DNA from: Lophium mytilinum
Taxonomy: Eukaryota
Length of the DNA: 64,000 nucleotides
Assembly (NCBI GenBank): GCA_010093605.1
Contig: MU004192.1
Span: 256,882 to 320,881, forward strand
Direction of reading: 5' to 3'
The notes beneath the pieces are model-generated. The model was given only the letters and a program-made list of their open reading frames with translations, was not told the DNA's origin and did no database searches. Below, piece by piece: positions 2,106 through 50,516 of the stretch. Every line of letters starts with the position of its first letter. Positions within the stretch are counted from its first letter, which is position 1. A program made the translations under genes and the position numbers.

Positions 2106-2124
2106 CATTTCCGGCTTGTGCCCA

Positions 2125-6709: not shown

Positions 6710-7373
6710 TTTCAAAGATACGGGGAGTACGCAAGGCGTTTATGAGAGAACGATCATGCAGTTCGATCGATAAAGCCTAAGGACCAAATTACGAAAGAGT
6801 GCACAGATACTCCGAGATATCAGCAAAAAAGAATCGATTGCAGGCTGTGCACTATGCTTCCGGTTCGACGAGAATTTCCAAAGTGGAGTTGAGTACCTGG
6901 TTTGGTCATACCTCCACCGATGATGCGCATCGCTCAACCACCAATCAACAACGCCATGCGACGCACACCGTGAACTCCAAGGCCTTCGATCATCCCGCTC
7001 AACATTATCCATGCCGTCCGAAATCCCCGCACCCTGGAGCTTGGTGGACATCTTGATTAGCTTGTTTCCTAATAACGTAAAGAAGCCGTCCTCCCACCCC
7101 AAAAAACGGCGCTAGAATCGCATCCTAGTCAACAAGCCAGGCCAAACAACGCGTGCATGTTCAATTGATAATGTCTAATTGGCATGTTCCTGACTATCCT
7201 TGAGGATTGGCACGTCATATTACTGTGCTAGGCTGGAGGCCTCGGTCGGAAGATGGGGGTAGCTCTTGCCAAGATCTACCTAGCTAGAGCTTGGATAGCT
7301 ACAAAAGATGGCCGTGGCCCGCCAGCACGCCGGGTAGTCCTTGAAGACAGCACTGCAAAATCAAATTGGCATC

Positions 7374-13300: not shown

Positions 13301-13852
13301 GCGACTCGACGGTCTCTCGATGCCGTTCCCGTAGGTCGACAGGCGCCTCCGGGCAGCTGCATTGTCGTCTCCGCTGTGGTGTGTCGCGTCGTACATGGAA
13401 TTGAATGACGCGCGCCTGGATGGTGCTCTCCTTCCCTCCTGCGATGTACTAGCATATCCGTTGAGGCCATGGTGGTCGAGATTGCGCGTGATGTCCTCGA
13501 CTCCCTCTCCCTCTCTGTCAACCTCGATTTCGATCCCCATGCGCGCCAGCTTCGCCTGGAAGTGCGTGAAAAGATCCCCCCCTTCCCTTGGTCCCTCTTG
13601 CATATGAAATATGAAACGGATGAGGATGCGATCATGATCGGTGGTGAGGCCGTGGCGCGCGAGGACGGTCTCGTAGGCCGCATACAGGGCGTGGAATGGC
13701 GGCCCGGGGAGGCTTTGCGCCGCCGTGACGATCTCGTAGAGGATTTCAATGTCTACAATTTTGTATCAGTATGAACCCGGTAGAAGTGGAGAGGCTGGGT
13801 TTTTACCATCGTTGGAAAGGGGAGGCAGCTCATCGGTGGTGGAAGCTTGCAT
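10379..13852 (-). CDS. SFI1: Sfi1 spindle-pole-body half-bridge protein (centrin-binding Trp repeats)
   Basis: Long helical protein with many F/L-x-x-W-R/K repeats; exon 1 13852-13807 (MQASTTDELPPLSND) spliced over intron 13806-13753 to IEILYEIV...ALYAAYETVL, in frame with the 1074-aa ORF. Confidence 0.85.
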
Positions 13853-14198
13853 TCGAAGGGACTCGGGCGACAGACGCGGGTCCCCAAAGGCATAAGCGCG
13901 ACGTGGAAGACGTTTCGATCATGGAATGGCCAAGGCGGTGCGGAAAGGGCGATCGCGGGCAATTAAGCATTACTAGGGAAAAAGAAGAAGGAAAAAGAAA
14001 TGGTGGTGATGGCAGCAAGTGAAGTGGGTGTTTCGCTGCACGCGTGAAGGAGAGCAAGAAATGCGCTTGGGCCCTTTGTTGTTGCCAAGTTTTGCCAAGC
14101 CGGGCCTGTGCTTCGGCGCCATTCACTGCCTGTCGTTGTGTGGACGTCGTTGAGGATGAAACACCAGCCTACACCAAACCGATTTCCATCTGGCCACC

Positions 14199-14490
14199 AT
14201 GCCCTCCAAGACCCGTCCAATTGAGAAGTTTGCTACCGCCGTAGGGAAGTGCTCAGCGGAGGTGGGTACTTCACCTTCTCAATCTTTATATTCGCCTCCT
14301 CTGACGCATTCCATTGAAGGGAGCCGTCTATGGAAAGTGCATCGTTGCAGACTACCAAAACGTCACTAAAGACAAGTGTCTTACTGAGTTTCTGAAACTG
14401 AAAGACTGCTATCTGGTAAAGTAGTTCACTGCGATTGTCTGAAGTTAGACTCTAACGCTTTGATGGCAGGCCGCATACAAGAAACGGTGA
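14199..14490 (+). CDS. 59-aa twin CX9C protein, NDUFAF8-like complex I assembly factor (not in ORF track)
   Basis: Exons 14199-14261, 14320-14415, 14470-14490 give MPSKTRPIEKFATAVGKCSAEGAVYGKCIVADYQNVTKDKCLTEFLKLKDCYLAAYKKR with two exact C-x9-C motifs. Confidence 0.85.
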
Positions 14491-23398: not shown

Positions 23399-24510
23399 TG
23401 TCGTAAGTAGTACTTTCCAATAACACAGTATTCAAAGACAAATAGAAGAAAGGAGGAGCCAAAGTTTTAACGACTTCGAAAGTCCGTGCCAGTAGCTTTA
23501 AGTAAAACCGCCCAATGCCGGCCCTCTAACTAATTTACCCGCCACATGCTCTTTCATACGCCGATCGTACGAGCTGGATGTGGTTCGACCACCCGTCGAG
23601 CTGGACCATCGGTTGCTATTGTATCGTCGGTTGAGATGGTCGAATTCGGGAACTCGACGGATCCGAGCCGCAAACCCGGGGAACGGTAGATCGAGGCGTG
23701 CCGATGCGGGCCCTGGGTAGGCACCCCGCGATTTGGTAGTGGCATAGCTATTTTCCGTGTCTTCTAGCTTATGTGCGGAAGCACTGCGGAAAGGGAGACA
23801 GGAGACCGGTAACCAGTAAGCGAAATGGGATGTGGTGTTCCCGAAAAGTTCCTGAGGGGTGAAATCATGTGAAAAGCACGTGAGAGACTGATCGCCCCGA
23901 AGCCCAACACTCGCTTCCCTCCCTGAGTGAGCAACATACCTTGCCGAGAACCGATTTCATGTACTTTGACTTCAAACAACCCAGATAATATGCACTTGTC
24001 CGCTTTGTATTACCCTGTCCTCGAAGTATGAAGTTTACCTAAATGCTCTTAAGGAAGAGCCAATCGGAGCGACTCGATAAGGTAAGCGAGGTGTGCCGAT
24101 TGGGCCAAGCCGCAAAGGTAACGTAGGATATATGAGCTGTATGTTTGTGCTACCTCTGAACATCCGGAACCCCCTCCAGCGTTGAAATTCTGTTTCTATC
24201 ATCATCTTCACGCTTGCCTACGAGAGTCTTCATTTTCTCGCATAATAATATTCTTTCTTTACAGCACTACAGTTACCCTCATACTACTCACGACACTTAT
24301 CAAAGAGTCGTTCAAAACCTTAGAGCCTCACTGAATACTAGGATACTATCAGCAGTGTTACAGTATGGTGTTTAATGACGTGGCCGCGGAGGGCAGTTCC
24401 TCCGCTGTAGTACAGCATCGCAACAACTCAGCGGCGCAACGCTCCAAACTTATCGACTACACTCCGTTACTTTCACCCAGAGATGATTTGAGATCCTTTA
24501 AGCACCTAAA

Positions 24511-26691
24511 ATGCTCTGCGCCACTTGTGTCTCGATATTCCAAGGACCCTCCAAGGAAGGAATCCATCATCACAGCTTCGAGAACCTTGTAAAGGCAGCG
24601 GACTTGGGCTGCAAAATTTGTATTTGCTTGCATCGCCTTCGTGGAAAGCACGGCCCAGACGAAGTCGAGGAAAAGAAATGTCCATTTACCACTTTCAGCC
24701 TTCAAATTTCATGCAATGAGAATGCGCCGTTGGAATTCGAGTTCCGATCCACAGCTTCGTGGTTGCTTGCCCCGATGGAAAACAGAATTCAATTCCACAT
24801 TTCGAGGCCTGGGCCCTTACCCCACTGGTGGGCAGGATATCTTAAGGGGATCCAGCAGGACCTAATAACCGAGCCCTGGAACGTTAGAGAGGACAGTTTC
24901 AATACTAGGCCTATCCCGAAGAGCACTGGGAACGTGGAAGTGGCAGAGATTGGCCTAGCGTGGTTAAATACATGCCGGAACCATCACTCAGCATGTGAAT
25001 CCATCGATGAAACACGGCAACGGGACTACTACCCGAACAGAGTTCTTGATGTTGGAACTCTGGAGTCCCCCATCCTCCGTCTGATCACAACAAAGGTCGA
25101 ACTACCGGCTAAGGGCAATCGATATGCCACACTGAGTCATTGCTGGGGTGGCAATGCTTCATTCATTAGACTGTCAACCGAGAACATGGCTTTACTGAGC
25201 AAACAAATATCACTAGAATGTCTCCCGAAGAGCTTTACGGATGCAATAATAACTTGTCGGCGCCTTCGTATCCGATATTTATGGATCGACAGCTTATGCA
25301 TTCTACAATCTGGACCAGGGTCAGAAGAGGACTGGCAGACTCATGTTGCCGCTATGCATACTATTTACACCAACTGCGTACTGAACTTAGCTGTAGCTTG
25401 TGCCTCCAGTCCTGACCAAGGCGCTTTCGTTGATAGAAACTCCTCGTTTATCAAGACCACCTGCGTTTATGCGCCTGCCAGCATGAACTTTCACAACCGA
25501 AATGCCGATCCGAGCGATCCCCAAAGCGAAGATGAAGCAGACGGGACAGAGGAAGACAAGACAGGAAAAGCCAAGACAGACGAAACTGGGAGAGTCATTG
25601 CTAAGGACAAGCGAAAAGCACAACTTGAAGACAAAAGTCATGTTTGTAACATGGAAGAGTTTTGCCTGGCAACAATATTTACTGAGAGTTATGACTTTTC
25701 GTCCTCTCTTCATAGGCAACCCCTTTGGAAACGTGGCTGGGTGTTCCAAGAACGTCTGATGACCCCTCGAATGCTCGTATTCGGGGACGATCGAATCTAT
25801 TGGGAGTGTCATGAGCGAATACTGAACGAGTACTTGCCCACAGGCTTACCAGGCTCTGGGGAAGTACTCCAACTGCACAACCTCATACCATTCACGCTCC
25901 CAAGTATCGTCCTCCGTTCTGAACCACCACTCACCTTGACGGAGTATGAATCCTCTAGACTCTATGATGACTGGAACAATATTCTATATCACTACGCAAG
26001 AACCGATTTGACTTATCCGGAAAAGGACAAATTGGCTGCATTAGCGGCTATTGCTCAACGATTTGGTCGCGTTCTCCCTGGCAAGTATTGCGCCGGCCTA
26101 TTTGAATCTGACATTCACCTCGGTTTACTATGGTGGCAAATCGACATTTCTTGCAGGCTAGGACACTTTGCACACTCTAAGTGGACGTTTACATTCAGTT
26201 TTGATGGATACCGAAGCCCCAAATATCGTGCACCCACGTGGAGTTGGGCCAGCGTGGACACCACGTCGAGCTTGTTCGGTCCGCCTATTCACGTGCGCAA
26301 CCGCATTCCTAATCAGGTATTTCGTCGCACTCTGGCCAATGTTGAAAGCATATCAGTCGAACTAAACGAACCCCGAAACCCCTTTGGCCAGGTTCTCTCT
26401 GCCGAGCTTGTGATCAGCGGCACAATCATACATCTTTCATCCACGGATCTTGTCGACGACGACAACTCTCAAGCGCACTACCCAAACGAAAAGCTACTGG
26501 GGCTTTGCATTATAGAGGGCATGAAGCATTCAGGAAGCGTTGGGCACATTTCTTCTGAAGTATACGGTATATTCCTCACGCACGTCGGCTCCGATAAGTA
26601 CCAGCGTATGGGGTACTTCTCTTTGGTCGGACCTCAAGATAGCCGCTTTCCAACAGAAGATTATGAAAGGAAGACTATAACGATAATTTAA
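24511..26691 (+). CDS. Stand-alone HET (heterokaryon incompatibility, PF06985) domain protein, intronless
   Basis: YATLSHCWG, YLWIDSLCILQ, MHTIYTN, PLWKRGWVFQERLM, YRAPTWSWAS motifs; 726 aa. Confidence 0.92.
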   Translation: MLCATCVSIFQGPSKEGIHHHSFENLVKAADLGCKICICLHRLRGKHGPDEVEEKKCPFTTFSLQISCNENAPLEFEFRSTASWLLAPMENRIQFHISRPGPLPHWWAGYLKGIQQDLITEPWNVREDSFNTRPIPKSTGNVEVAEIGLAWLNTCRNHHSACESIDETRQRDYYPNRVLDVGTLESPILRLITTKVELPAKGNRYATLSHCWGGNASFIRLSTENMALLSKQISLECLPKSFTDAIITCRRLRIRYLWIDSLCILQSGPGSEEDWQTHVAAMHTIYTNCVLNLAVACASSPDQGAFVDRNSSFIKTTCVYAPASMNFHNRNADPSDPQSEDEADGTEEDKTGKAKTDETGRVIAKDKRKAQLEDKSHVCNMEEFCLATIFTESYDFSSSLHRQPLWKRGWVFQERLMTPRMLVFGDDRIYWECHERILNEYLPTGLPGSGEVLQLHNLIPFTLPSIVLRSEPPLTLTEYESSRLYDDWNNILYHYARTDLTYPEKDKLAALAAIAQRFGRVLPGKYCAGLFESDIHLGLLWWQIDISCRLGHFAHSKWTFTFSFDGYRSPKYRAPTWSWASVDTTSSLFGPPIHVRNRIPNQVFRRTLANVESISVELNEPRNPFGQVLSAELVISGTIIHLSSTDLVDDDNSQAHYPNEKLLGLCIIEGMKHSGSVGHISSEVYGIFLTHVGSDKYQRMGYFSLVGPQDSRFPTEDYERKTITII

Positions 26692-27985: not shown

Positions 27986-29718
27986 CTACCCTAGATTCGT
28001 ATAGGACTGTCCACAAGGGCCCGCCATGTTCCCCGTGCTTCTGAACGCTGGACTAGTATCCGGCCCATAGCTCAGTCCATTGAACGTGCCAACGGGGCAT
28101 GAGTCCGTGACGCCCACTTGCGACCCTGCGGCGGTGTTCGTAGCTACACTAACTACACATCCTTCATAGCTATAGAAGTATGCTGAAACGCAGTTCGCTA
28201 CTCCGAAGAAGCAGGTATTGCAGCAAGCCTGCACAGAATGCCCTTGTGGTGTGGCAAGGCCATACAACTGGTTTGCGATTCTGAGATTGGTCGAGGTGGT
28301 GGCATCTCCATACGTGGGTCCTTGATAGTTGGTGATTGGCGTTGCGCAGGCTGGAAGGGGTATTTGTCAGTACATTTATGTATCGGCGCGAAGAGGCAGC
28401 TTACGGTAGACAGTTGTGGTCGTAGTTGGGCTGGTATACACGGTGTCTGTCGCTGTCGTCGTAACTTCTGTTGTTGTGGGAAGTAGACTCAAGCATTCAC
28501 AGGATGCTGTTATGTCAGGCGTCGACGTTGGTGTTGGGCTGGGTGACGTGCTGCTGCTTTCTGGGGCAGTCGTAGTACTTAGGATAGTTGAACTACTTCC
28601 AGAGCTCTCTGATGTTGTGGTGATGCTCTCGAAAGCTGTGCTGGAGCTCTCGGTAGTAGATGGTGTGTTTTCAGGAGTTAATGAAGTGGTGTCGACAGTA
28701 GAAGAGGAGCTCTCGACAACGTTGCTTGAGCTTGAGCTGGAACTCTCCGAAGCAGAAGAGGAGCTTTCAAGAGTAGAGGTCACACTGGATTCCGGGGTGC
28801 TTGAAGAGCTGCTTGACTGCGCAACAACCGAGATGGTCGTAGAGGATGACGCGGATGATGTAGCTGAAGAAGATGAACTAGATGCGGAGATTGATGCTGA
28901 TAAAGACAAAGTTGACGAAACCACGGTAGATGAGATCACAGGAGTTGAGACCGGGGTAGACGAAGCCACAGTATGTGAAACCAGGGAATTTGGGGCAATT
29001 GTGGACTTAGAACTGCTCGCGTATGGTTTTTCTGTAGATTTAGTGCATGAGGTGGTACCATGATGCGACGTAAACGATGATTTAGAAGGGCTTTGAGAGC
29101 TCGACTTCTGCGTGGAAAACGTGCTCTTGCTTGTATGACGAGAAGACGGGGTGTGTATAGGTGTCGAAACCGCCTTCTTGAGCGTGCAGCTCGACTCTCG
29201 CGTGGAAAATGTACTCTTGCTTGTATGGTGAGAAGAAGGGGTGTGAATAGGTGTTGGAGCCGCCTTCTTGAGCGTACAGCTTGTACTTGATTTCTTGATT
29301 CCAGATGATTTATGCGTGCTGATGTATTTCTTGTACGACGGCGCTTTCGTGCTCTTACTCTCGGTGCATATGGAGGTGTGAGAAGGAACCGCTCTGCCAG
29401 CTATAGTCGGTGGGGGGTTCCCTGGCAGAAACACATAGCTGGTGCTCGTAACAGCGCCTGCAGAGGGCGAGGTGACGGTTGTTGTACTTTGCCGTAGGTT
29501 AGGTAATTATACAATAAGATTCGGGGTCATGGGGGGTACCTCGTCGTCGTAGTTGTGGTGTCAGAGACGCTGAGCAGGGTTGAACAATACTGAACGGGGT
29601 CTCCAATAGAGAACGGGGAAAAATCACAGAAGCTTTGTCGTCGCTGTCGAGTGATCGGGGATGTCAAAGCGAATGAGCCAAAAAGGACAGTGGCTGCAAT
29701 GAAAGTTAGGGGAACCAT
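27986..29718 (-). CDS. Secreted Ser/Thr-rich (mucin-like) protein with Cys-rich C-terminal domain
   Basis: Exons 29718-29540, 29486-28405, 28350-27986; signal peptide MVPLTFIAATVLFGSFALT, RQRR processing-like site, long S/T stalk, C-terminal ACCNTCFFGVANC...GC...CP...PCG. Confidence 0.8.
29098..29281. repeat. 90-bp (30-aa) tandem duplication inside the S/T-rich gene
   Basis: AGCTCGAC...GCCTTCTTGAGCGT at 29098 and 29188; encodes SCTLKKA(A/V)xTPIHTPSSxHTSKSTFST twice. Confidence 0.9.
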
Positions 29719-30907
29719 AACGAATGTGGTGGTAAAGCTACCGAAAGAGTGACGGAGAAGCGAGTGACGAAAAGAACGAGACGCTGTCAACAAGAATCGC
29801 AAACGATCAAAAGTAGGAGAGTGGGAAGAACGCGACTATTAGTTATTCTGTGATAAAGGGTTACGCTAAATAGGGTACCTAGTGATCTACCGCCGCCATA
29901 GCGTCAAGAAGCATCTCGACCACATCACTGGCACAGGCCACACAATAGTGCAACCTCATCAAATTCTAGTGTACCCCCAATCGAATACAAGAATGCAGCG
30001 GTGACTGCTACGTTTTCGGGCAAAGAGAGATTGTTGTGAGGCAAACCCAATTGCTTGATCGCGACCTTGTTCTATAAAGAAAACGAACAACGTACGCAGG
30101 CTTGTAGATGCGATCACTGTACCCAGAGAGTGCCTTGGGTCAAAAGCTTCTTTTTTCAAGCATCGGCGCCATGGTGATCCTTTTTGCTGAGCCTACACCA
30201 TTTTTGACATCTGTCAGTCCACTTTGGGACGAACCCCTGACTAGTCATGCAAGTCAATAAGCCTAGAACGCGGCTCAGCTACGCCACTGCGCCTCCAGAT
30301 CAAGCCCGATCTATACTCATAAATTCGTAGGAGATGCATACGGCCTCTTCTCAATCCCGGTGGTTTTAGGGGCTTAATGCGTCACTCGTATAGAGTCGTC
30401 GTATCGTTAGGGCTGGATTTCCTAGAGTGCGATCTGCTGAAAGCCACTCATTAGGCGCTATTATTCTTGCTAACTTCACCAAAAGAAAGCGGCACAATCG
30501 CTACCAGATTATCGAGGTGCTTCACGGAAGCTTTCCCACCAATTTGCTAAAAACGCCATGTCGCATTACTCTTCAAAGAACACCTCCATCCTGGAATCAT
30601 GGTGGAGGGTTAGAGTTTTTGGGAGGCTTTCTTTCTAAAGCCTTAGGTATATAGCGGAAGGAACCACTGACAGCGATCTAGCATAAGAGATGGCTGCGAT
30701 AGATACGAGATCACGCCGACCAAACGTAGATTAGCCTTAAGCTATGTTCTGTTACAGTAAGTTTACTCAAGAATCGGGGCCCCAAGATTGGAATCTAGCA
30801 AGAGCATGAGCAGCTCACTTCTCTGAACGGGAAAGGAAATTGGTTGGGCGCACACCGGGATATCATACTGTCTGTTATGAATTGGCGGAACTCGAAGGTA
30901 TTACATG

Positions 30908-32311
30908 CTACTCTCCGTCTCCTCCATCTGCTCCCGAACCTGCATCTGCCGGATCCGCCTGAGGGTCAGTATTCTTCCCAAACATACCGCCAAAGAAATT
31001 CGAAATCGTCTCACCACTCCCAAACGGGCTGGGGATAGGCACCCCCAACAACACCGCCGTCGTAACCGGAAAGATAATCTTCAGCGCCGCAAAGAGATAT
31101 TTGCTCGTGCCCTTGGCCCTCCTCCCCTTCTTCGAGCCCTCAGCCCCAGCACCACCATGGCCGCCTCCACCACCCCCATCCTCAGCCAGCACGGGCGACT
31201 GCGCCAGCTCCGCAATCTTCCGCTCAAGCAACTCCCTCTCCTCGAGCCTGATTTTCCCCTCGTTAGCTCGGACGAGCGCGACGGCCTGATCGAAGCTGAG
31301 TTCTCGCACCTTGGCCTGCCGCTGCATCTCGAGTTGCATTTCGCGGATGCGCGCCTCGAAGTCGTTTTCCATACGGCGCTTTTCCGCGCGGCGGTCGTAG
31401 CGCAGCTGCTCCTGCTGGCGGTGCACCTTGGAGAGCTCTTTGTCGAGCTTGCGCTGCTGCTCGTCGAGGATCTGCTGCATTTCCTCGTCGTGGTCTTTGA
31501 GCGCTTCTTGCATCTCCTGCTGGATCTTGGAGAGCTCTTCGGCGTGCTTTTCCGCCAGGCGCACGAGCTCTTCGTTGACGGTTTGGCCGGCGGCCGTGTC
31601 GATGAGCGATTTGTCTTCTTCGACGAGCTCGCGCTGGATCTTTAAGGTTACGGGGGCTTTTTGGAGGAGGGTGGAGACGATGTCTAGGGCGGATCTGCGT
31701 TCAGTGAGTCGTTTCATCGTCGAGCCTCGCGATATCATGCTGCCCCAGAAGTCTGGGGTAGTGCGGAGCTCCTCTTCTCTTTTCTCAGCCACATCCTGGT
31801 TCACTTCGCCCCAGAATGTTGTCGCGAGTATTACATTCTTGAGAGGTTCATTACCACAAAGTTGTCGAAACATCTTGAGATTTCGCAAGGCTGAGCCTTC
31901 CATGCGGACATTGACGAGACTGTGGAGATAGATAACGCCATTAAGTCGGGTATCTCCTTCGTAGGACTGTTTCAGCCATTTTGCAATGTCCTGGAGGACT
32001 TCGGTCTCGCTCTTGTTGGTGTCGTTAAAGCCCGGGGTATCGACCAAGTTTATGTTGTATCCATTGTAGTGGAAAGAGTAGCCCATTATCTCGGAAGTAC
32101 CTGCAGGCATTAGACACCTTGAGCGCAGCATCTTAGGGCTCGTATACTTACAGGATTGGAGATCATGGCCCACTTCAATATTCTGATTACCGCTGACAAG
32201 CTTGATAAAGCTGCTTTTTCCCGACCCAGTCACCCCCATCACGGCAATGAATGCCCATGGAGCGCCATCTACGGGCTCCTGGCTGAAGAATTGATCTGCT
32301 GGTAGTATCAT
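30908..32311 (-). CDS. AIG1/GIMAP-like P-loop GTPase with long coiled coil and hydrophobic C-terminal segment
   Basis: G1 IAVMGVTGSGKSS, G2 SCT (after removing 51-nt intron 32151-32101), G3 LVDTPGFND, LNGVIYLH, ATTFW; coiled coil; Gly linker; KYLFAALKIIFPVTTAVLLGVPIP; ATG at 32311. Confidence 0.88.
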   Translation of the reverse strand: MILPADQFFSQEPVDGAPWAFIAVMGVTGSGKSSFIKLVSGNQNIEVGHDLQSCKYTSPKMLRSRCLMPAGTSEIMGYSFHYNGYNINLVDTPGFNDTNKSETEVLQDIAKWLKQSYEGDTRLNGVIYLHSLVNVRMEGSALRNLKMFRQLCGNEPLKNVILATTFWGEVNQDVAEKREEELRTTPDFWGSMISRGSTMKRLTERRSALDIVSTLLQKAPVTLKIQRELVEEDKSLIDTAAGQTVNEELVRLAEKHAEELSKIQQEMQEALKDHDEEMQQILDEQQRKLDKELSKVHRQQEQLRYDRRAEKRRMENDFEARIREMQLEMQRQAKVRELSFDQAVALVRANEGKIRLEERELLERKIAELAQSPVLAEDGGGGGGHGGAGAEGSKKGRRAKGTSKYLFAALKIIFPVTTAVLLGVPIPSPFGSGETISNFFGGMFGKNTDPQADPADAGSGADGGDGE

Positions 32312-32805
32312 ATTTGAAGCCTTTCTTGAAGTTTCCGAACACCGACAGTCTCGCACGATTTTTAATAAAGCACGCAGCGCTCCGCCAAGCACTGCAGTGG
32401 CTATGCCGTGGAAGTTTCATGCACGTCGCGAGGCGTGACTGTCGCCTCCTCGTGATTGAGGCTGATGATTGATGTTGGGCTAGGCTGTCACAAGGCAACA
32501 AGGCGCCGAGACTTCGGATGTGACAGTTTGCTATCGTGCATTGCATTGCAGGCTGGCGGCCAATAGCTTCGCATTAGCTCCGAGGCTATGCATGGCTAGC
32601 CTGGCGAATGCTGCACTTCGCCATTAGGCGCGCCCGGGGGGCAAAAGACGCCCTTTTAGTGCCCCGGTTTGCTGGCTGCAGTGTTTTGTGCGAGTACAGC
32701 CAGGCCCAGATCGATTGGGGCAGGATTGCCAGAGAGCGCTAGCTGTTACACCAGGCATTCAGCGTCAGGAAGTAAAACAATGAACGTTGTGTATGAGAAA
32801 CCCTG

Positions 32806-34629
32806 CTAATGTTTCCACCCAGGCGGTTCGCCCATCCAACAAATAGCCTTCTTGAGCACGCTGCGAACCTCGTAATCGCCGTCGTCGTTTCCACGACTGA
32901 CCACAGCAGGATGCGTGACAACCAAGATGGGGAGTCCATCTAATCGCGCCGGGTTGTCGTTCAAATGCTTGTTATGAAGCTGATGAGCTTCAAGCAGCGG
33001 GTGGTTGTGTTTGAACACCTCTGGCAAATCTCCCTTGAACCTGCATTCAAGATCCCGCTTTTGTACCCATAGAGAGAACGATATCTGTGCTGCCCGTTTG
33101 GCAAACGAATGGAGGAGCTTCTCCGCAGCATCGCACCGAGGGCTCGTCATCAAGGGCTCAATGCCCGTCTGAAGGAACTCATCGCATACTACGATAGCGG
33201 CATTGTCTCGCGCTTCTTCGGTCCTCTTGTTTGTCTCCGCAGCGGCCTGTGGAGCCTTCTGACTTGAATTCGACGCAGGAGCGAGCAATCTCAATGTTTG
33301 AGCCCGCCATGCAAATGCCTCTTTCTTATCGACTGCCCATTCATTAGCATTCTGCCACCTGCTCAGTTGAAAGCTAACGGGGCATACCTTCTCGAAGCTC
33401 GTCGTAAAGCGTACTTAGCTCCGCAGCAATACTAGCACTTCTGGCATCATCGCCCTTGGCAGGCTTCACGTTAGAGAGCCTCTCGCCAATGAAGAAGAAC
33501 GGCTCCTCAAAGATTTCTGTATAGAGCTTGTGAAGAAGCCGAGCCTGCAAGAGCATCCACGATCTATCGTCTCCGACTCGAGGTGGAACTTTGCCGTGTT
33601 CAAGTCTAACCACGCAATCCAGGCAGCCCATCAAATTTGCTCTTTCATCTGGGGTCAACGCGACTCTAGACAGCAATGGAACTGCATAGGTCTTTGCCCA
33701 AGCCTTGATATCGAAGTCCAGACTCTTCAACTTACGACTAATGTCCTCGTTGGACTCGGGCATCCACTCCGCAGAGTCAATTTGACGAAATGCCCTCTCC
33801 TGCACTCTTCGAAACTTCTCTGCTTGTTGCTCCTGCTGGTCGGCCATTTGATTCATTTCCGCGCGAGCGAGCTCGAATTCGCGCTTCCAAGTTTGGGCTT
33901 CTTTGTTATATGTCACAGCTTGACTCTTCCATGCTTGAGCATCCTTGGACGTTTCATTCAGGCGTCGCTTCAATTCTTTGATGGTCGTCTCGTAATCGGG
34001 CTTGATCATTCGTCTCGGATCGTACCAGCTCGTCCCTTGGTCATGTGACGCTGCTGCCATTGCCGCTATTTGGGCTTCTCTATCAATATCGCTCGTCAAC
34101 TTTGAGGCATTTCCCGAATTTGCCAATTCGGACTTTGACAGTGGTCTTGGCGATGACATAGAGGCATTTGTTGTACTGGAAGTTCTGGTAGGCACACTAG
34201 AGGCGACATTTTGGGAAGGGGCCGGCTTAGACACCTTTCCCGAAGTCGGCCTTGACGAGCTTATAGATTTGAATTGCACATTGCCGTCTATAGATGCTGA
34301 GTTGGTCCGAGATACGGTTTTGATTGATTCCTTGGGTGCAACCTAAAATTGCATGAGCGGTAGTAGGCATGGAAAACTTGGCAATCTTACTTTGTGAATC
34401 TCATCATTTTCGAGTGCTTCCTCTACCTTTGAATTCGGCGTTTCCTGGTAAATTATGTTAGCCGCCCAATTCATTCTAATACTGATATAGAAAGAGCTGT
34501 ATATATGATCGGACCCTTGGCAGTCTCCGTCTCCGGTGAAAGTGAAGTACTGAACGAGAATTGAAGCTTGTCCATAGCATGAGACATGTCACCAACCTCT
34601 TCTCCATTTTCTAACTTTTCGCCGGACAT
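32806..34629 (-). CDS. Coiled-coil protein with GrpE/MIEAP-like C-terminal domain, multi-exon (5' end approximate)
   Basis: Exons include 34444-34391, 34342-33388, 33332-32806; S/T/P-rich N-terminus, coiled coil, AFAWRAQTLRLL, C-terminal FKHNHPLLEAH...ILVVTHPAVVSRG...VLKKAICWMG. First exon junction not resolved. Confidence 0.75.
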
Positions 34630-35568
34630 TTTGGCTTCAGCATCCATCAACAGCTTCAATCCTTGAACCGCACACCCGTCAAACTCCAAAATGCTTCAGT
34701 TTGTCAATCTTTGCTTTGTAATGGGGCCAAAGAGCGGCTAGATATATGAAGCAGATGACACTCAAGAGCCCGAGGGCATATACACAGTTTGGACTTTTCA
34801 GGTCAGCTGCGGAGTCCGTGCGATCAATGTTAATGATCGTCGAAGTCTGACGAGGTGGATTTATGAGGTACAGTTACGAACCAGGCTTAATGGAAAGTCA
34901 AGAAAATGAACGGTGCGCTGCGCCGCCTGCTGCGGAACGTTATCTGTAACGCTCTAGAATGTTCCCAATGAGTTATGGGGCCAGTGTCGGTCGAGTCTCG
35001 GGTATATGGGGCATATATGGCACGATAGGCTGCTCCTGGTGGACTCGAGACGCCTGCGCAGTGTCAAACTGCATAAGTGCTGTGTCGCGCGAGCCCAGGT
35101 GGTTGGGGGCGAACGTCGGCGTTCACAAGGCTGAAATTGTGACATGCTCTACTCGTGCAGCATGCAATGAACCCAGAATGGACGACGGGCGCATATTGCG
35201 ACTTTATCATGCAGGCTCGCTGCAACGCTGTCCAATGGAAATTTACTGGATGGCCCCAAGGTTTCCTTGGTGTTTCTGGTGGAGGCGGAGCTGGTTGGGG
35301 CGCGGTCGTTTGCAGCAGCTAGAGTCTAGCGAGTCCAAGGCTCTGCAGCGACCAGCGACCGCGCCTGGGTTCCAGATTTTGTGTTATCCAGGCGATACCC
35401 TCGGCCATGCTTGGTGATGGCCGAGTGATCCATCGAGGCTGACATCCTAGGCGTGCACAAGTTTGTCTTTTATTCGCAGGGCGTTGGAAAATACTTATCT
35501 GATCCGTTCCCTCTCGCTCCACTAGTGGCTGGAACAGAGCATTCGAGAGATACTCGAGAGGACTATCG

Positions 35569-37805
35569 ATGGCAGACCTGTATGAGAACCCGTGGGAAAG
35601 GCGAACGACCGTTCGAAAAGCGGCGCCGGGGACATGGAATAATGGTTCGCTGCTTTCTGCGCTGTCGTTGACAGACAGCAGCCACCGAATAATCATCGGA
35701 GTCGACTATGGCACAACTTACACAGGTAGGGATCTCAGAGCTCAACACTAGCAGTGTGCGCTCCATCCTCTAACACTTCTAAGGCATTTCCTATGTCGAC
35801 TCCTCGAAAACTAGCATCAACGATATCCACGTCATTAGAACCTATCCGGGCCCAGGTGGTGCAGACGCCGTCTGGAAGACGCCGTCGCGAATTGCCTACC
35901 GGAGCGAAAATCAAGAGTCCAGCACCAATCAATTCGGGTACCAAGTTACTCCAAAGATGACCAGCTATAGCTGGACCAAGTTGCTGCTCGATTCCAGGAC
36001 CCCAGCAACGGCTCATGATGATCCCGATCTGCAGAAATCAGAAGGCACAGGCATGCTCAGACTTCCCCAAGGCAAAACAGCGACAGAGGTAGCTGCCGAT
36101 TATCTTCGAGAGGTATACCGATGGACAGTCACAGAACTTGAGAAGCGTATCTCTCCAGAGGTGGTTCGCGAGACCCCGTTCGAATTCTGGTTCACGGTAC
36201 CTGCCATCTGGAGTGATGCCGCAAAAGCTTCGACTCAAGCCGCCGCACGCGCCGCAGGCTTTGCCTCGAGACCAGGAGACAAAATCTTTCTAATACCGGA
36301 ACCTGAGGCAGCTGGCGTATCCGTCTTGAAGGGTTTGACTCAAGAAGGACTATCAAACCAGGCAAAGCCAGGTGACGGCCTCTTGATATGCGATTGCGGT
36401 GGAGGCACTGTGGATATAACCACCTACAAGATTACCAGCGTCGCACCAAAATTAGCTTTCGAGGAACTAGTCGAGGGAGCCGGTGGCAAGTGTGGTTCCA
36501 CATATATCGATCGTCAGTTCCACCAATGGATGTCGCGAAAGTTTGGTGCTAGTTTCGATAAATTGAGGTTCGAGAAGAAAGGCCCAGGCAGTCGATTCAT
36601 GAAGGATTTCGAGGGCCACAAGAAGGATTTTGGATCTTCTGACGACCTCGACCAAGTATATGAGATCAACCTGGTGATGCCTGGCGTAAGCTATTCAATC
36701 GTATACGATGACGATGAATGTGTAGTCAAACTTACTGGGTACGAGATCATGCTCAACTTCTATCGAAAGTTTGTTAACAAGGGTCTAGGCGAGATATGCT
36801 CAGCTTTTTCGAACCAGTGGTGGACATGATCATCAGTCTTCTGGAGCAACAAATGCGACTAGCAAACCAGGCTGCAGGGACCTGCACGATTAATGTCGGT
36901 CTTCGCCTTGATGAACTGAGAAGCATCTTGCTGACATGACTTGTAGCGAGTTATCCTAGTCGGCGGTTTTGGAGATTCTCCTTTTCTCAACACCAAGGTT
37001 CGGGCATGGTGTAACAGGCAAGGAAGCATACGGCTCTTATGTCCAGAGCATCCGTAAGTTATTTTCACACTCTAAATTGGCCCGCCTTACTAAGCCCAAA
37101 TAGGCAAGCAGCCATTGTTCGAGGCGCTGCATTGCGTGGTCTTCTAGACATCGCACCGATTAGGAAGCGATGCCGTCGTCACTACGGTGTCGCATATAGC
37201 GCTACGTTTCGAGAAGGTGTCGATCCTGAGACTGACGTGAAGTACGATTCGTGGGATGGGCGAAAGCAATGCAACTCGAGAATGGATTGGCAAGTCAAAA
37301 AGGTTGGTCGAAATTCTGCAGAAGAAACACAATTACTCACAAGAGCCCTAGGGACAAGTCATCGACGAAAACACCCATATTTCCACAAGCGTACGGAGAA
37401 GTTACACAGCAGGCGATTCATTAATTCGGACTAAGACATTGTATTCCAGTTCATTTGAGAATCCGCCAGAGAGGAAGACGGACCCTGGTACGTCCAGTTT
37501 TGCTTGGCCTTTGAAAGAACAATGCTAATAGCAGCTTAGGCGTAGAAGTGGTTGGAACGATCCGGCATGTCATGCAACAGTCGCACTTGGCGAAGTTCGA
37601 ATCGAGTTACAAGAACGGAAAGTTGAGGTACAGACTCTGTTATGATAGAGAAGTAATACTAGGATCGAAGGAAGGGACATTACAGTTCAGGGTGACGTGT
37701 GACGGGGAAGAGCTCGGAACCGCGTCTATCGAGTATGCGAAGGATGAAGTCGCTCCAGGGGGAGGGTCACCCGCCTCTGCAGCGTCAGCCATGCATTATG
37801 TGTGA
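35569..37805 (+). CDS. Atypical Hsp70 (HSPA12-like actin-fold ATPase), multi-exon
   Basis: Phosphate-1 IIIGVDYGTTYTG, FTVPAIWSD, IPEPEAA, phosphate-2 LICDCGGGTVD, GGKCGSTYID, adenosine ILVGGFGDSPFL, AIVRGAALRG; no canonical lid or EEVD. Confidence 0.92.
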
Positions 37806-38233
37806 TACCCTTGGATTTTAATCAATTTCAAGCTTTGTGCCGCGACGCGTTTGCTTGATGGTGGTGTTGCTCAAAACCGACAAGCACCTGATAGGGAACA
37901 AGATAGCCAAGTGATTAGCATTGATTACAATATAACAGGTGCGCAGGAGAGAAAGAAGACGGTTAGATGGATGGAAGGAGTCTTCTAAAGCATGTACTCA
38001 AGAGTCGATGTTGTTGAGTTGCAAAGGGATGTGCCCGTGCCCGTGATCGGCTCGGCAAGACTTTCCAGGACCGCCGAATCCCGATCTTCTAGGCCTCCCG
38101 CCGACTCTCCTAGGTACCGTAGCCTGAAGGAGGCGCAGCAACATCAAAACAGTGTGAATGCCTGCGTCCTTCGCACCTCCAGCGTTATGTCCACGGACTC
38201 CTCAACCTCTCCAGCTTTCGCGTGTGCTTTGGG

Positions 38234-39756
38234 ATGAGTAGCACGCTCCATCCGCGGAAAGCCGGAAAAGGGTTCATACACACTGCGGGCAACGTTGCTC
38301 TCTGCATTATCGGTTGCCCAATCATTTGCCCACTTCTTTGCTTGGCGGTTATAATGAAGACAAATCGCTTATGGAAGGAGAACGATCCACGGATGAAACA
38401 AGACAAAAAAGCACTCGAGGCCTCTTATTTAAGGAAGCGCCAGAAATATGCCCCGGCTCCGCTCCTGCAAACGCGGCTACGTGCTCTTACTCTGAGAGCC
38501 TTTACAGCAGAACCAGGGGAGCTAGATCCTATGCCCGAAGAAGAAGATCAAGAGACGGGAGACTCGGCCGGGAAGCCGAGGAGACAGTCGACTATCGACA
38601 GCATCATTAGGAGGGCGAGGAGGCAATCCACCGCTGATAGCGTGAAAGGAAAGCCCCAGCGGGAATCGACCATGGATAGCTTCAGAAGTAAGCCTAGGAG
38701 ACAGTCAACTATCGACAGCCTGAAGAGCAAATCCAGGAAAGAGCCGGTTACTGTTGATCAACTTGGGAAAAGTGGCTTGTGGAAGCTACCGTTCGAGCTA
38801 CGGACGACGATATGGAAATACGCTCTCGGCGGCAATTACATACACATCCTGAAGAAGCGGGGCCGACTTGGCCATGCATATTGTCCCGCAAAGCACCCAG
38901 AAGTCTTTCCACGCGTGGATAGATGTTCGTATCCCATGAAAGATGGGTTCTCCGTTACCACGGCATTCCCTTTCAGGCAAAAGCCTCTGGGACTGATATC
39001 TACATGCCGGCAGATGTATGTCACCATGCAGTTGTAATTATGTTTTCAAATCACTGACTTGTTCGTAGATATTCGGAGACTATAGACATTCTGTACTCGC
39101 ATAACACCTTTTCGTTCGACGACCTTGACGCTTTGAACTGGTTTGGTCTTACTACCTTGCCACACAGACGCGAGCTGATAACCACCCTTCATTTCAAGTA
39201 CGAGCTTGTCAAGTCATTCCAAACCGTTCAGCCACAGCTACCTCCAAACGATACAAAGACCTGGATAGACGCCTGCAACGTTCTGGCTTCAATGTCCAAT
39301 CTTCAAGAACTAAGGATAGTCGTCGAAAGCCATTTCGGCTATAGCGCAAACAATGTGTTCCCATTATTCCCCGAGTTCCTAGACTATCTTTGTGATCTCT
39401 CGGTAGCCGGAAGATTCGATGTCCATGTCCCTTGGCCGAGAGATCATCCAGCAGAGTACAAGCTGGTCCCGGCGAAGGCACCATTCGAAGTGAAGCGCTT
39501 CGATAAGGGAGACTTACGTCTTGATGACTTACGTCTTCAGGACTTCGCGATTCCATTCACCGTTCAATGTCTGCATTGTGAGGAGTACACGGAGATCAAG
39601 AAATCCACGATTGGGTCCGCAATGAGGACGGAGTCAGATGGGACGACCGAGTTCTGGACGTATCACACCTATTGTGGAGGATGGATTGCGTTTACATCGG
39701 CTTCACGGGGAGATTACGCTGTCTTGCAGGGCGCGAAACGGGTTGTCGAAGCTTGA
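38234..39756 (+). CDS. DUF7730-like (F-box-like motif) protein with 13-aa repeats and C-terminal Yju2/CWC16-like Zn module
   Basis: LWKLPFELRTTIWKYALGG; across intron ~39016-39068 reads STCRQIYSETIDILYSHNTFSF; C-terminal FAIPFTVQCLHC...HTYCGGWI...YAVLQGAKR. Confidence 0.72.
38570..38740 (+). repeat. Four 39-bp (13-aa) tandem coding repeats
   Basis: GKPRRQSTIDSII / RRARRQSTADSVK / GKPQRESTMDSFR / SKPRRQSTIDSLK. Confidence 0.88.
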
Positions 39757-48186: not shown

Positions 48187-48596
48187 AATAAGTATCGGTA
48201 AAGTCAGGATGCTATTGTGGAACTGCACAAAGCAGATGTCAGGACGTGTTTCTGATTTTTCTGGAAGCCGGATAGGAAGTCCGAAACGATCTAAAAGCTG
48301 TCTAATTTCGACTCATGGTCTGTGCATACTACCCACTTCTTCCGCTCTTCTCTTCTTGTACACAAATACACATTCACATATACATAGTTTTGCATTTATT
48401 CCGATCAAGCTTGTGCTAATTTAGCTAACGTGGGGGCATTCTACTACTGCACGATGGACCCTTGTCGCCGAGGTTGGGCTGAGAAGCCTGCACTCAGCCA
48501 GCCTTCATCACGCCTTTTTATTGATTTTTAATCTCTTCTATCCCCTTCATCAAGCAGAACCATATTCTTCCAGCGGAAGACAAGACGGCCTCCGCG

Positions 48597-50516
48597 ATGA
48601 AATACAAGTACAAGCCCATCACCCACCAAGATGGCATACGCTTGTTAGAGTTGCAGCCATGCGAGGATCTTTCCTCACCACTGTCCAGCCGACTCATACA
48701 TACTAAGATCTCATCTTGCAATGAAGACATATACACGCACTACACGGCCCTCTCTTATGTCTGGGGTAGTCCGGAAATGACCAAAAGAATCACAGTCGAT
48801 GGGTTCTCGTTGGGCATAACGGACAGCTTGTTCGCTGCTCTCCACGACCTCCGCGACCAGGCCCGCACACTCCTACTCTGGGCGGACGGGGTATGTATTA
48901 ACCAGAGCGATGAATTGGAGAAGACAGCTCAAATCAGAATCATGGGGGATATATACACTTCTGCGCGACATACTGTCGCGTACCTTGGACCTGCCAATCG
49001 TAACGACGAAGAGAGAATACTTCGATCCATGCGGCCGCCAATTACCAGCGCCATTCCTCCTAAAGAAGAAGCAAAAAACAGTTTGAACAAAAGACTAAGC
49101 CTCGCAGCGGATGCCAGACTAGACAAGATCCTCAGTAGGCAATGGTTTGGGCGCGTCTGGGTCTTCCAGGAGCTTGTTTTCTCTACCAACCCGTGGATTC
49201 AGTGCGGGCGAACGAGGGTGCGATGGGAAAGATTCTACCAAGCGCTAAAGAAAGAAAAGAGCGAAGGTGAAAAAAGTGGACAGACCTCAATATCGGAAGC
49301 ACCCACTGCTAGTATTGTGTCACAGATGCATGAAGCCTGGGAACACCACCACGGTAAAAGGCTCACATCGTACTCAGCCCCCGACAATACCGTCCTCTCA
49401 TACTACGCTGGAGAAAGCGTCGTTTTCGAAAACACGCTGATCGATTTGTTGCTGGCGAGAAGGGGGCTCGGGGTGACGGACCCGAAAGATATGGTGTTTG
49501 CTCATCTTGGATTCGCCACGGACGGCCACCTCTGGACAATAGGAATGGACTACTCGAGAACGGCTAGTCAGCTATTCCTAGACGTCGCTTGGTGGATCCA
49601 GAACTTGTATGGTCTTCCTACACTTTTTGCATGCGTTGGCGAGAGCATGGCAACAAGCCGCCTCGAAGGCCTACCGTCATGGGTGCCAGACTGGACTCAC
49701 AGAATACCGTTGACGTTGTCCGCAACCCGCCGTCTCTTTTTGAAAGCCGCGCAAGGGTACCGAAATGGCTCTCCATTGAACATACCTCGGAAATCCCGTG
49801 CAGTTCTGCAATACGGAGATGTCATTGGGTGTCACCTGAGCGTAAATGACGAAGTGCTACTTACCAGCCGCGAGCTATGGGTTCGAAACATCCCGAAGGG
49901 CATTTGCGACGGATTCAAGTACCATTTCATATCGGCGAAGAGACTTCTGGAAAAGCTCGACGAATACCGGCACAAGCCCCAATCGCGTCTACCACCTGAT
50001 ATCTTCCAATCACTTGACAATCAGTGGCCAAAGGTATATCAAGCTTGGAGATACGCAGTTCAAGATGACGAAATTCTACCGCCGCCAAAGACTTTAGGGG
50101 AATGGAAATCCTTGACGTCTGATTTTTTCAGAGGAAAGACTGAGACGGTCCCGGTGTACCTTGCCTATGCTCTTTGTGACGGCGCCAACGCTGAGGTTGT
50201 TGAGGGCAAAGTTCTGGCTAGACTTACTAGTGGTGCGCTGGCTCTTTTGCCGGCATCTACCAAGCCCGGAGACTTGGTTGCGTCGCTGCCTGCGAACTTT
50301 TCAGCTTACGAAGAGCCTTCCTCCTTTGTGTTCCGCCAACACCCGCTTGACGGACTTGCAAGCGAGAAAGATGAACTTGAAGAAAAAGCGGCTCAAGAAC
50401 GGCCCATCAAACACGTTACCCTCATAGGAGAGGGAGTTCGTGACTCCGCGGCGTCGTCCCATTATGTATCAGAATTCTACCAAGAGCCAGAAGAAGCATT
50501 GCTAGTAATCCGCTAG
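48597..50516 (+). CDS. HET-domain protein (HET-6-like), intronless
   Basis: IRLLEL, YTALSYVWG, LWADGVCINQ, MGDIYTSA, WFGRVWVFQELV, TDPKDMVFAHLG, LPSWVPDW. Confidence 0.92.
   Translation: MKYKYKPITHQDGIRLLELQPCEDLSSPLSSRLIHTKISSCNEDIYTHYTALSYVWGSPEMTKRITVDGFSLGITDSLFAALHDLRDQARTLLLWADGVCINQSDELEKTAQIRIMGDIYTSARHTVAYLGPANRNDEERILRSMRPPITSAIPPKEEAKNSLNKRLSLAADARLDKILSRQWFGRVWVFQELVFSTNPWIQCGRTRVRWERFYQALKKEKSEGEKSGQTSISEAPTASIVSQMHEAWEHHHGKRLTSYSAPDNTVLSYYAGESVVFENTLIDLLLARRGLGVTDPKDMVFAHLGFATDGHLWTIGMDYSRTASQLFLDVAWWIQNLYGLPTLFACVGESMATSRLEGLPSWVPDWTHRIPLTLSATRRLFLKAAQGYRNGSPLNIPRKSRAVLQYGDVIGCHLSVNDEVLLTSRELWVRNIPKGICDGFKYHFISAKRLLEKLDEYRHKPQSRLPPDIFQSLDNQWPKVYQAWRYAVQDDEILPPPKTLGEWKSLTSDFFRGKTETVPVYLAYALCDGANAEVVEGKVLARLTSGALALLPASTKPGDLVASLPANFSAYEEPSSFVFRQHPLDGLASEKDELEEKAAQERPIKHVTLIGEGVRDSAASSHYVSEFYQEPEEALLVIR

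Follow-up and report, generated by a model that had tools for sequence, protein, structure and literature searches.

A conserved gene trio of filamentous ascomycetes: a divergent Hsp70 and its candidate ATPase-binding partner beside a putative membrane GTPase

In a 64,000-nucleotide stretch of the Lophium mytilinum genome (contig MU004192.1; hereafter the window), the block at positions 30908-37805 holds three genes, which encode a GIMAP/AIG1-like GTPase, a coiled-coil protein, referred to here as the partner, and a divergent Hsp70. An earlier note, made from the sequence alone, had described these genes as a candidate three-gene system, and the gene models worked out here match its positions and spacings exactly. 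The start codons of the Hsp70 gene and the partner gene are located head-to-head at a distance of 940 bp (35569-34629), and the GTPase gene starts 495 bp past the partner stop codon (32806-32311) on the same strand. The coiled coil and the hydrophobic tail that had been claimed for the GTPase, as well as the coiled-coil nature of the partner beside the Hsp70 gene, are all present as stated. The features of the block are the following, with coding sequence abbreviated as CDS, open reading frame as ORF, untranslated region as UTR, nucleotides as nt and amino acids as aa.

30908-32311 (-): GTPase CDS, an ORF of 467 codons with exons 32149-32311 and 30908-32097 and a product of 450 aa
32098-32148 (-): in-frame GTPase intron of 51 nt, identified by its GTAAGT...CAG sequence and by a spliced joint
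31040-31096 (-): predicted membrane anchor of the GTPase, made up of the hydrophobic stretch LFAALKIIFPVTTAVLLGV in its C-terminal part (residues 389-407)
31247-31308 (-): alternative GTPase intron of 62 nt, seen as a joint 31246->31309 in one contig of lower depth (35.9), with a shorter side of 27 letters
34629-32806 (-): partner CDS, coding exons 34596-34629, 34389-34443, 33388-34340 and 32806-33332, product of 522 aa
34630-35568: divergent intergenic region of 939 bp with both 5'UTRs inside, spanned completely by transcript contigs
34794-34881 (-): intron in the partner 5'UTR, joint 34793->34882
35569-37805 (+): Hsp70 CDS, product of 641 aa, with the seven exons 35569-35725, 35784-36738, 36789-36894, 36947-37053, 37104-37302, 37352-37487 and 37540-37805

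The transcript contigs stem from one public run labelled "RNA?", a label that is itself a guess; the joints counted are flanked by GT..AG or CT..AC, and contigs of this kind neither allow a ranking of genes by depth nor reveal where transcription starts. Spliced joints were found at all six introns of the Hsp70 gene (6/6), at the three coding introns and the 5'UTR intron of the partner gene and at the GTPase intron. Since there is a joint at every modelled intron, we conclude that all three genes are transcribed and spliced and that the gene models are confirmed. The deduced partner protein is 100% identical to the annotated 522-aa hypothetical protein P0001 of L. mytilinum, and exon 2 of the Hsp70 gene encodes a sequence with 98% identity to the Hsp70 P0125 of Mytilinidion. 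We presume that the intergenic region 34630-35568 functions as a shared bidirectional promoter. Use of the alternative GTPase intron would, as computed from the sequence, shift the reading frame and result in a 324-aa isoform lacking the last conserved helix and the hydrophobic tail, and the version conserved in the homologues is the frame that remains unspliced across 31247-31308. The short isoform could represent a regulated soluble form or noise.

The Hsp70 is a distant member of its superfamily. Exon 2 of the window gene alone scores 19.4 bits against the Pfam family HSP70 (PF00012), and P0125 scores 37.1 bits (cut-off 20.6), the match covering only profile positions 110-372 of 599; the best match in the PDB is the DnaK ATPase domain (9.7e-10), limited to DnaK residues 119-379. 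The score of P0125 above the cut-off together with the phosphate-binding and adenosine motifs places the protein in the Hsp70 superfamily. Among 52 homologues, D46, E225-P226-E227-A228 and D256/G258-G259-G260-T261/D263 are invariant, G48, T49, T50 and L410-G415 are conserved in at least 90%, and these positions fall in the motifs DYGTT, EPEAA, DCGGGTVD and LVGGFG. The protein is not a canonical Hsp70 of the DnaK/Hsc70 type. As the earlier note had claimed, EEVD and lid are missing: only the ATPase domain is recognisable, a substrate-binding domain is not, the C-terminal part of about 190 aa has no profile match and the chain ends in ...AMHYV. The family comprises 261 matches at E ≤ 1e-3, and relatives are labelled "HSPA12A/B" in the source annotations.

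The GTPase carries its G domain in the N-terminal part; coiled coil, Gly-rich linker and hydrophobic tail follow. It passes the Pfam family MMR_HSR1 (PF01926; 25.4 bits, cut-off 21.9, residues 22-107) and stays below the threshold of AIG1 (PF04548; 21.8 bits, cut-off 27), which appears in the precomputed domains of many of its homologues. With a profile of the family, the best PDB matches are GIMAP4 (9.2e-7) and GIMAP7 (7.3e-6), while EngA, septins, IRGs and Toc rank lower; the match to the GIMAPs spans G1 to G3 only (profile positions 19-97). Profile and conservation are based on 30 homologues, in which M21, G22, T24, G25, G27 and K28 of the G1 box and D70, P72, G73 and F74 of the DTPGF motif are invariant (numbering of P0006). 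The G1 consensus MGVTGAGKS, a Ser-Cys-Thr switch motif, the coiled coil and the C-terminal hydrophobic segment are also conserved in these relatives. Residues 389-407 of the window protein form its most hydrophobic 19-mer (mean Kyte-Doolittle hydropathy 2.13), and the tail aligns throughout the family with the consensus LLxxLxxxLxxxxxALLGxPxxxP. The family is large (522 matches at E ≤ 1e-3). Two relatives from Basidiomycota (agarics), P0031 and P0109, contain G domain and coiled coil in two tandem copies within one chain, from which we conclude that the GTPase family reaches beyond Ascomycota and has fused forms.

For the partner P0001 no Pfam family was found. An exhaustive search retrieved 501 representative relatives at E ≤ 1e-3, of which 214 remain at ≤ 1e-10, with matches over approximately residues 150-516, and its nearest cluster in the ESM Atlas comprises 4,377 hypothetical proteins, which come mostly from ascomycetes. 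The AlphaFold2 model (mean predicted local distance difference test, pLDDT, 79.2; above 85 in most 10-residue blocks of residues 150-520) predicts a disordered N-terminus rich in Ser and Thr, followed by a single long helix (143-216), a domain of helices and, at the C-terminus, a small beta domain. A short homologue that consists of the globular part only is modelled with a mean pLDDT of 91.9 and a predicted template modelling score of 0.89. A wide structural search with the whole partner model (VIA) yielded coiled coils that match the long helix only.

The earlier note had suggested that linkage in other genomes, congruence of the gene trees and an interface between Hsp70 and partner be looked for, and all three were found, the interface as a prediction. 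Scanning metagenome contigs with 10 partner relatives resulted in seven loci (L001-L007), which were compared with the window by tblastn with the three window proteins. The GTPase gene is located directly downstream of the partner gene and on the same strand in 5/5 loci with enough downstream sequence (L001, L002, L003, L004 and L007), and the Hsp70 gene is head-to-head with the partner gene in the 3/3 loci with upstream sequence (L002, L003 and L004); L005 and L006 are too short for the arrangement to be read. Because L002 and L003 are near-identical, the metagenome loci amount to about four independent cases. The order is retained although the partners of these loci are only 28-43% identical to that of the window; in L001 the partner is 27-43% and the GTPase 68-82% identical. 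In tblastx comparisons the similarity to the window is limited to 30956-37736, i.e. to the three genes, and the flanks differ: in L002 they hold GH6 and Mid1 genes, and in the window HET, DUF7730, OGDH and GH71 genes. In L004 the Hsp70 and partner matches (1485-4562) lie 3 kb apart, compared with less than 1 kb in the window, and an ORF without Pfam match (2095-2586) stands between them, which could stem from an insertion or belong to the partner as a long, variable N-terminus.

The same linkage was observed in genome assemblies. Among the best 120 GTPase and the best 120 Hsp70 matches, 13 assemblies are common to both lists, and in 10 of these 13 the two genes reside on contigs of equal size. 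In all five assemblies with numeric locus tags, the tags of Hsp70 and GTPase are exactly 2 apart (Bathelium, M1822_008371/008373; Penicillium canariense, N7482_002188/002190; Myotisia, FQN57_002304/002302; Elasticomyces, LTR15_007194/007196 and LTR27_008927/008929), where the identity of the intervening gene rests on the metagenome loci. We conclude that the arrangement of the trio is far beyond chance. Trees of the GTPase and the Hsp70 from 10 linked pairs have 4/4 strongly supported clades in common. One of these unites Myotisia (Eurotiomycetes) with the LTR27 copy of Elasticomyces, apart from the LTR15 copy, in both trees (Shimodaira-Hasegawa-like approximate likelihood ratio test support 100 and 99) and thus cuts across the species tree, from which we conclude that the genes were duplicated and inherited together. 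The module has paralogous copies within a species, and the architecture of all its parts is the same across Dothideomycetes and Eurotiomycetes. The partner is the part that diverges fast, with 87% identity between two close genera versus 98% for Hsp70 exon 2.

The complex of Hsp70 and partner was predicted for Mytilinidion, from residues 37-641 of the Hsp70 P0125 and residues 165-544 of the partner P0002, the contigs of which are equal in length. The interface confidence score ipSAE was 0.70, 0.70 and 0.71, while the best of three controls scored 0.00; in a benchmark, 51 of 78 solved complexes and 2 of 108 mismatched pairs attained this mark. The models contain 114-124 contacts with a partner pLDDT of 84, and the contacts agree between runs by at least 79%. 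On the Hsp70, the predicted contact residues are 37-39, 58-83, 170-183, 330-366 and 441-444, i.e. they are placed on both lobes of the ATPase domain flanking the nucleotide cleft, and the C-terminal part is free of them. By alignment, residues 330-366 correspond to ~263-296 of DnaK, which we take to be subdomain IIB, and residues 58-83 come after the phosphate-1 motif; with a constant offset, the DnaK loop 28-34, presumably needed for GrpE binding, would fall within the latter stretch. On the partner, the contacts are predicted at 225-265, a conserved R..QE.AF...W.P segment following the long helix, and at 460-527 in the C-terminal beta domain. They include the family-invariant residues R229 and Q232 (numbering of P0002), and their conservation exceeds that of the remaining chain (0.418 versus 0.335; permutation p ~0.02). 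Nucleotide-exchange factors such as GrpE bind both lobes flanking the cleft. Because the contacts are predicted on both lobes of the cleft as with GrpE, we read the partner as a putative GrpE-like exchange factor or clamp.

A comparison of folds points in the same direction. When the globular partner model was compared with 48,161 chains, GrpE structures took ranks 1-3 (4ani_A, Z 4.7; 1dkg_B, Z 4.6; 9bls_B, Z 4.4) with root mean square deviations (rmsd) of 4.9-5.4 Å over 107-116 residues (4ani_A: rmsd 4.9 Å, 107 aligned), and in a second pass restricted to the first 998 chains of Foldseek they took ranks 1 and 2 (9a81_A, Z 4.8; 1dkg_B, Z 4.1). The tool itself cautions that a Z below 8 can reflect a common arrangement. 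We treat the GrpE likeness, which agrees with the predicted binding site, as a lead and not as membership, because Z is below the trusted level. The "GrpE/MIEAP-like" label of the earlier note thus stands in part: GrpE is indeed the top fold match, weakly so (Z 4.1-4.8), whereas none of the fungal members scanned reaches GrpE or MIEAP in Pfam, and MIEAP is reached by a bacterial counterpart only. MIEAP is named after an animal mitochondrial quality-control protein, and in the ESM Atlas it is borne by the cluster nearest to the partner among those with any Pfam family, at 0.82, which counts only as a lead by the standard of the tool.

Counterparts of the pair are present in bacteria. Bacterial and archaeal genomes were scanned with the fungal Hsp70 motifs DCGGGTVD and T[VIL]PA[IV]WSDxA, which resulted in 120 relatives, of which the best 80 were kept (loci L008-L087). 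Their hosts are filamentous cyanobacteria, actinomycetes, a Chloroflexi metagenome-assembled genome (MAG) and two Thiotrichales-type MAGs. The hidden Markov model (HMM) of the fungal Hsp70 scores these relatives with up to 249.5 bits, far above DnaK, and by these profile scores the fungal and bacterial Hsp70s are related at the family level. In locus L016 (Nostoc), the Hsp70-like gene is followed after 11 nt by a gene for a 349-aa protein that reaches the Pfam family MIEAP (28.5 bits, cut-off 27) and then by a gene for a dynamin-family GTPase; 1 of 28 bacterial members reaches MIEAP. With a bacterial partner HMM built from 28 such ORFs, a partner-like ORF was found in 71 of the 80 loci (72 ORFs), 43 loci being new detections. 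The start of 61 of the 72 ORFs is located between -200 and +400 nt from the end of the Hsp70-like ORF, with 4 nt as the commonest gap.

The gene that follows this bacterial pair varies. It encodes a dynamin-family protein in L016 and L029, a second Hsp70 in L010, L012, L015, L017 and L019, and a patatin-like phospholipase in L046, L063, L078 and L085 of Streptomyces (1.1e-26 to 2.7e-23); further neighbours are STAND and Schlafen genes (L065), a KAP NTPase (L032), a von Willebrand factor A (vWA) protein (L026) and kinases (L025, L072 and L087), and an AAA+ ATPase gene lies upstream in L008, L012 and L023. Patatin-like phospholipase domains also often occupy the N-terminus of NLR-type proteins in fungi. 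In conflict systems, as described in PMC7159879, the same pattern is seen, in which the pair stays constant and the neighbours, often effector-like, change.

A separate observation concerns the cyanobacterial loci L008, L012 and L023, in which the genes at approximately 3700-14300 form a tight co-directional operon that has the looks of a conserved multi-ATPase system. It encodes, in this order, a two-domain AAA+ ATPase (860-910 aa), a protein of 300-370 aa without assigned function, the Hsp70-like protein, a coiled-coil MIEAP-like partner, an ORF of 500-540 aa and another unassigned protein of about 360 aa. The ORF of 500-540 aa is a second Hsp70 by Pfam in L012 and has no Pfam match in L008 and L023.

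Fungal and bacterial partners share a possible C-terminal signature, since hhalign pairs the motif LDGxPIxxVxHPAV...KAxVW with GxIxFTVxPGYxV...KAxVFT. When the HMM of the fungal C-terminal part was run over 6,999 ORFs, 72 of them partners, partner ORFs made up 7 of the top 30 (P 1.5e-8) and 18 of the top 100 (P 2.8e-18). A further enrichment of 18 in the top 30 with a "globular" fungal HMM was not counted, as the alignment slice still held coiled-coil columns. When the fungal partner family was aligned by hhalign with the single L016 protein, only the coiled coil matched, and a search of bacterial and archaeal genome contigs for relatives of the fungal partner by pattern and tblastn found none. 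Homology of the fungal and bacterial partners is suggestive only.

The immediate surroundings of the trio are mixed, and the earlier description of the block as lying among accessory genes holds in part: two HET-domain genes and a DUF7730 gene are nearby, whereas a class I tRNA synthetase gene and a gene for 2-oxoglutarate dehydrogenase (OGDH) E1 are nearby, too. The HET-domain ORFs at 24502-26688 (+) and 48525-50513 (+), about 4 kb and 11 kb away, match Pfam HET with 5.7e-27 and 9.2e-30. Directly past the Hsp70 gene, at 38123-39753 (+), two ORF pieces match the two halves of Pfam DUF7730 (6.5e-11 and 2.8e-19) and probably represent one gene with an intron, the N-terminal part of which is repetitive and RRQST-rich. 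On the other side, a long ORF without Pfam match (28379-29506, -) adjoins the GTPase gene, and an acidic, Val/Glu/Leu-rich ORF of low complexity runs on the strand opposite to it (28512-29063, +). Two stretches of the window, 28001-30000 and 1-2000, have an unusually high GC skew (0.217 and 0.215, respectively).

PADLOC was also applied to the three proteins. The Hsp70 gave no match. The weak match of the partner to PbeC sits in the coiled coil, and the match of the GTPase to LeoBC (4.4e-6) and LeoB (2.8e-4) is confined to residues 206-340, which correspond to the coiled coil and not to the G domain; both were read as coiled-coil noise and rejected.

The trio resembles several known systems in part. 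As with DnaK and GrpE, an Hsp70-type ATPase is accompanied by a protein that combines a long helix with a beta domain at the C-terminus, here encoded by the adjacent gene; contacts of this protein with both ATPase lobes are predicted, and its best fold matches are GrpE chains. In contrast to GrpE, the fungal partner has no sequence relation to that family, its fold match is weak (Z < 5), it has roughly three times the size and an additional helical domain, its Hsp70 is devoid of a recognisable substrate-binding domain, lid and EEVD, and the module includes no J-protein gene. A second precedent are the bacterial DO-GTPase/GAP1 conflict systems with an HSP70 and GrpE theme, which are computational predictions only and many of which are described as working near the membrane (Kaur, Burroughs, Iyer and Aravind 2020, eLife, PMC7159879, accessible text). 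There, as here, the gene of a private Hsp70 is grouped with those of an exchange-factor-like protein and of a GTPase of the TRAFAC class. The fungal GTPase differs in that its best relatives are GIMAPs and not DO-GTPases; moreover, components of the GAP1, FNIII, DnaJ or tubulin kind were not seen in the fungal block, nor was a third large protein, and the block is eukaryotic, intron-bearing and divergently transcribed. Fungi are mentioned in the accessible text of that article for NACHT/HET incompatibility only and not for such a module.

The bacterial cassettes described above are similar with respect to the Hsp70 family motifs, a partner with a coiled coil and a resembling C-terminal motif and, in two loci (Nostoc L016 and Parabeggiatoa), a large membrane-type GTPase of the dynamin family as the third gene, and they differ in that their genes are co-directional and translationally coupled instead of head-to-head and that the third gene varies. 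Among animal proteins, the fungal GTPase family has its best relatives of solved structure in GIMAP4 and GIMAP7, whereas the window protein itself is under the AIG1 cut-off, and for the HSPA12 and GIMAP families no gene linkage or shared cofactor is reported in the accessible literature. Joint expansion of the Hsp70 and AIG1 families is reported for a nematode and an oyster in PMC6872716, a nematode genome article, the accessible text of which gives no mechanism and cites Guerin et al., J Mol Evol 2019, on the co-expansion. The function of HspA12 is called unknown in the accessible part of a 2026 review (PMC13580251), and GIMAP/AIG1 GTPases are called "mysterious" in the abstract of PMC7053062. 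Dreissena proteomics was discarded as support for a link of HSPA12 and MIEAP, as both proteins are merely in the same tables. In a full-text literature search, with subscription journals mostly outside its reach, neither a fungal gene module of Hsp70 and GTPase nor a link between Hsp70 and MIEAP was found to be described. The earlier note stated that it knew of no functional description in fungi.

Taken together, we consider it likely, with a probability of roughly 60%, that the three genes constitute a co-inherited module of filamentous ascomycetes, in which a divergent Hsp70 with a dedicated ATPase-binding cofactor is coupled to a membrane GTPase. The partner would set the ATPase cycle of this particular Hsp70, either as an exchange factor similar to GrpE or as a clamp; that it regulates nucleotide exchange, or locks an ATPase state, by binding across the cleft is in our estimate an even bet. 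The GIMAP/AIG1-like GTPase, with its coiled-coil stalk and hydrophobic anchor, would place or trigger the machine at a membrane, and the coiled coils of partner and GTPase would be the likeliest link between them. The pair of Hsp70 and partner may be older than fungi, with bacteria coupling the same two-gene cassette to changing third genes.

Several results weigh against this proposal. GrpE and MIEAP (PF16026) were absent from Pfam scans of P0001 and 10 short members of its family (E ≤ 10), and they were not among the 25 most-matched Pfam families over 66 partner-family members (E ≤ 1). Foldseek searches of the PDB with the whole partner model and with the globular domain found nothing at E ≤ 1e-3, and all GrpE fold matches are below the level trusted by the structural tool. 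The binding of partner and Hsp70 rests on the confidence of the model itself, and the Hsp70 contacts are less conserved than the rest of the protein (0.450 versus 0.551), which fits a variable recognition surface and is not positive evidence for one. The hhalign comparison of the fungal and bacterial partner families gave a probability of 29.5% (P 5.7e-4, 39 columns), or 10.9% after trimming (P 0.0028), and several alignments of the rank test are in helical regions and not in the beta motif. The predicted complex comprised Hsp70 and partner, and none of the results links the GTPase physically to these two proteins. With respect to defence, Pfam scans of the fungal trio revealed no toxin-like effector or hypervariable sensor domain, and the core genes beside the module as well as its constant architecture speak against such a role. 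Further, the listed Hsp70 and GTPase genes reside on different contigs in 3 of the 13 assemblies (Teratosphaeriaceae CCFEE 6253, Lasiodiplodia hormozganensis and Scytalidium lignicola), in which other paralogues, beyond the best 120 matches, may be the linked ones.

These unlinked genes, together with the size of the Hsp70 and GTPase families (261 and 522 matches), are what can be said for chance neighbourhood or mere local co-regulation of three large, expanded families without a joint function. We consider this explanation very improbable, given that order and orientation are retained at 28-43% partner identity, that the locus tags are 2 apart in 5/5 cases and that the similarity is confined to the trio; the congruent trees, the predicted binding and the presence of the pair in 71/80 bacterial loci argue in the same direction. 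The role of the partner is less clear-cut. It could bind the Hsp70 as a client, as an adaptor between Hsp70 and GTPase or as a lock of one ATPase state instead of an exchange factor, and its likeness to GrpE would then be a mere common arrangement of helix and beta sheet. The low Z of the GrpE matches (4.1-4.8) and the missing sequence relation are in line with this, as is the helical domain of about 220 residues, which is far above the 107-117 residues aligned to GrpE; in addition, a long coiled coil and a disordered N-terminus would suit a scaffold. We nevertheless regard this explanation as rather doubtful, because the contacts are predicted on both ATPase lobes, away from the C-terminal part at which a client would be expected, and because they include the partner-invariant residues R229 and Q232.

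With regard to the cellular role, the same module could be a housekeeping or stress machine of an organelle membrane (mitochondrion, ER, peroxisome or lipid droplet), in which Hsp70 and cofactor assemble or dismantle GTPase scaffolds on the membrane and which has no non-self role. Consistent with such a function, the architecture is the same across Dothideomycetes and Eurotiomycetes, effector and hypervariable repeat domains are missing, the hydrophobic tail of the GTPase is conserved, core genes adjoin the module, and the only Pfam family met by the bacterial counterpart bears the name of a mitochondrial quality-control protein. The Hsp70/AIG1 expansions of nematode and oyster are likewise interpreted as stress adaptation in the accessible text of PMC6872716. 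What argues against it is the fast evolution of the partner (87% versus 98% for Hsp70 exon 2; 27-43% versus 68-82% for the GTPase in L001), the paralogous copies within species and the unconserved flanks, the patatin, STAND plus Schlafen, KAP and vWA genes of the bacterial cassettes, which are typical of conflict systems, and the two HET-domain genes nearby. An organelle-stress machine hence appears possible, if on the whole unlikely. Because of the bacterial neighbours, the fast-evolving partner, the paralogous copies, the unconserved flanks and the nearby HET genes, we lean slightly towards a defence or conflict role over one in membrane or organelle stress.

The module would tie the HSPA12-type Hsp70 and GIMAP/AIG1 families together by gene order, by duplication history and by an uncatalogued protein predicted to bind the Hsp70, and it offers a testable partner for an orphan class of Hsp70s. 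The partner itself represents a candidate new family of Hsp70 regulators with 501 representative relatives, none of them in Pfam. If the bacterial neighbours (patatin, STAND, KAP and dynamin) are a guide, this may be an immune-type module common to multicellular bacteria and fungi. A broader and more speculative notion, which we think improbable as it stands, is that HSPA12-type Hsp70s are no orphans and that, from filamentous bacteria to fungi and possibly animals, they operate with a dedicated, co-inherited MIEAP-like cofactor that binds in the manner of GrpE and has been missed by family databases. The two would then be the invariant part of an ancient machine for defence or damage response that is directed to membranes, and its output part would be swapped between lineages, with dynamin or patatin in the bacterial versions and a tail-anchored GTPase of the GIMAP/AIG1 type in the fungal one. 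If this were true, the joint growth of the Hsp70 and AIG1 families in molluscs and nematodes would have a mechanistic basis, and a descent of animal MIEAP from an Hsp70 cofactor would be suggested. With its three genes and its counterpart in bacteria, the trio is a simple genetic system in which the function of these proteins can be studied in fungi.

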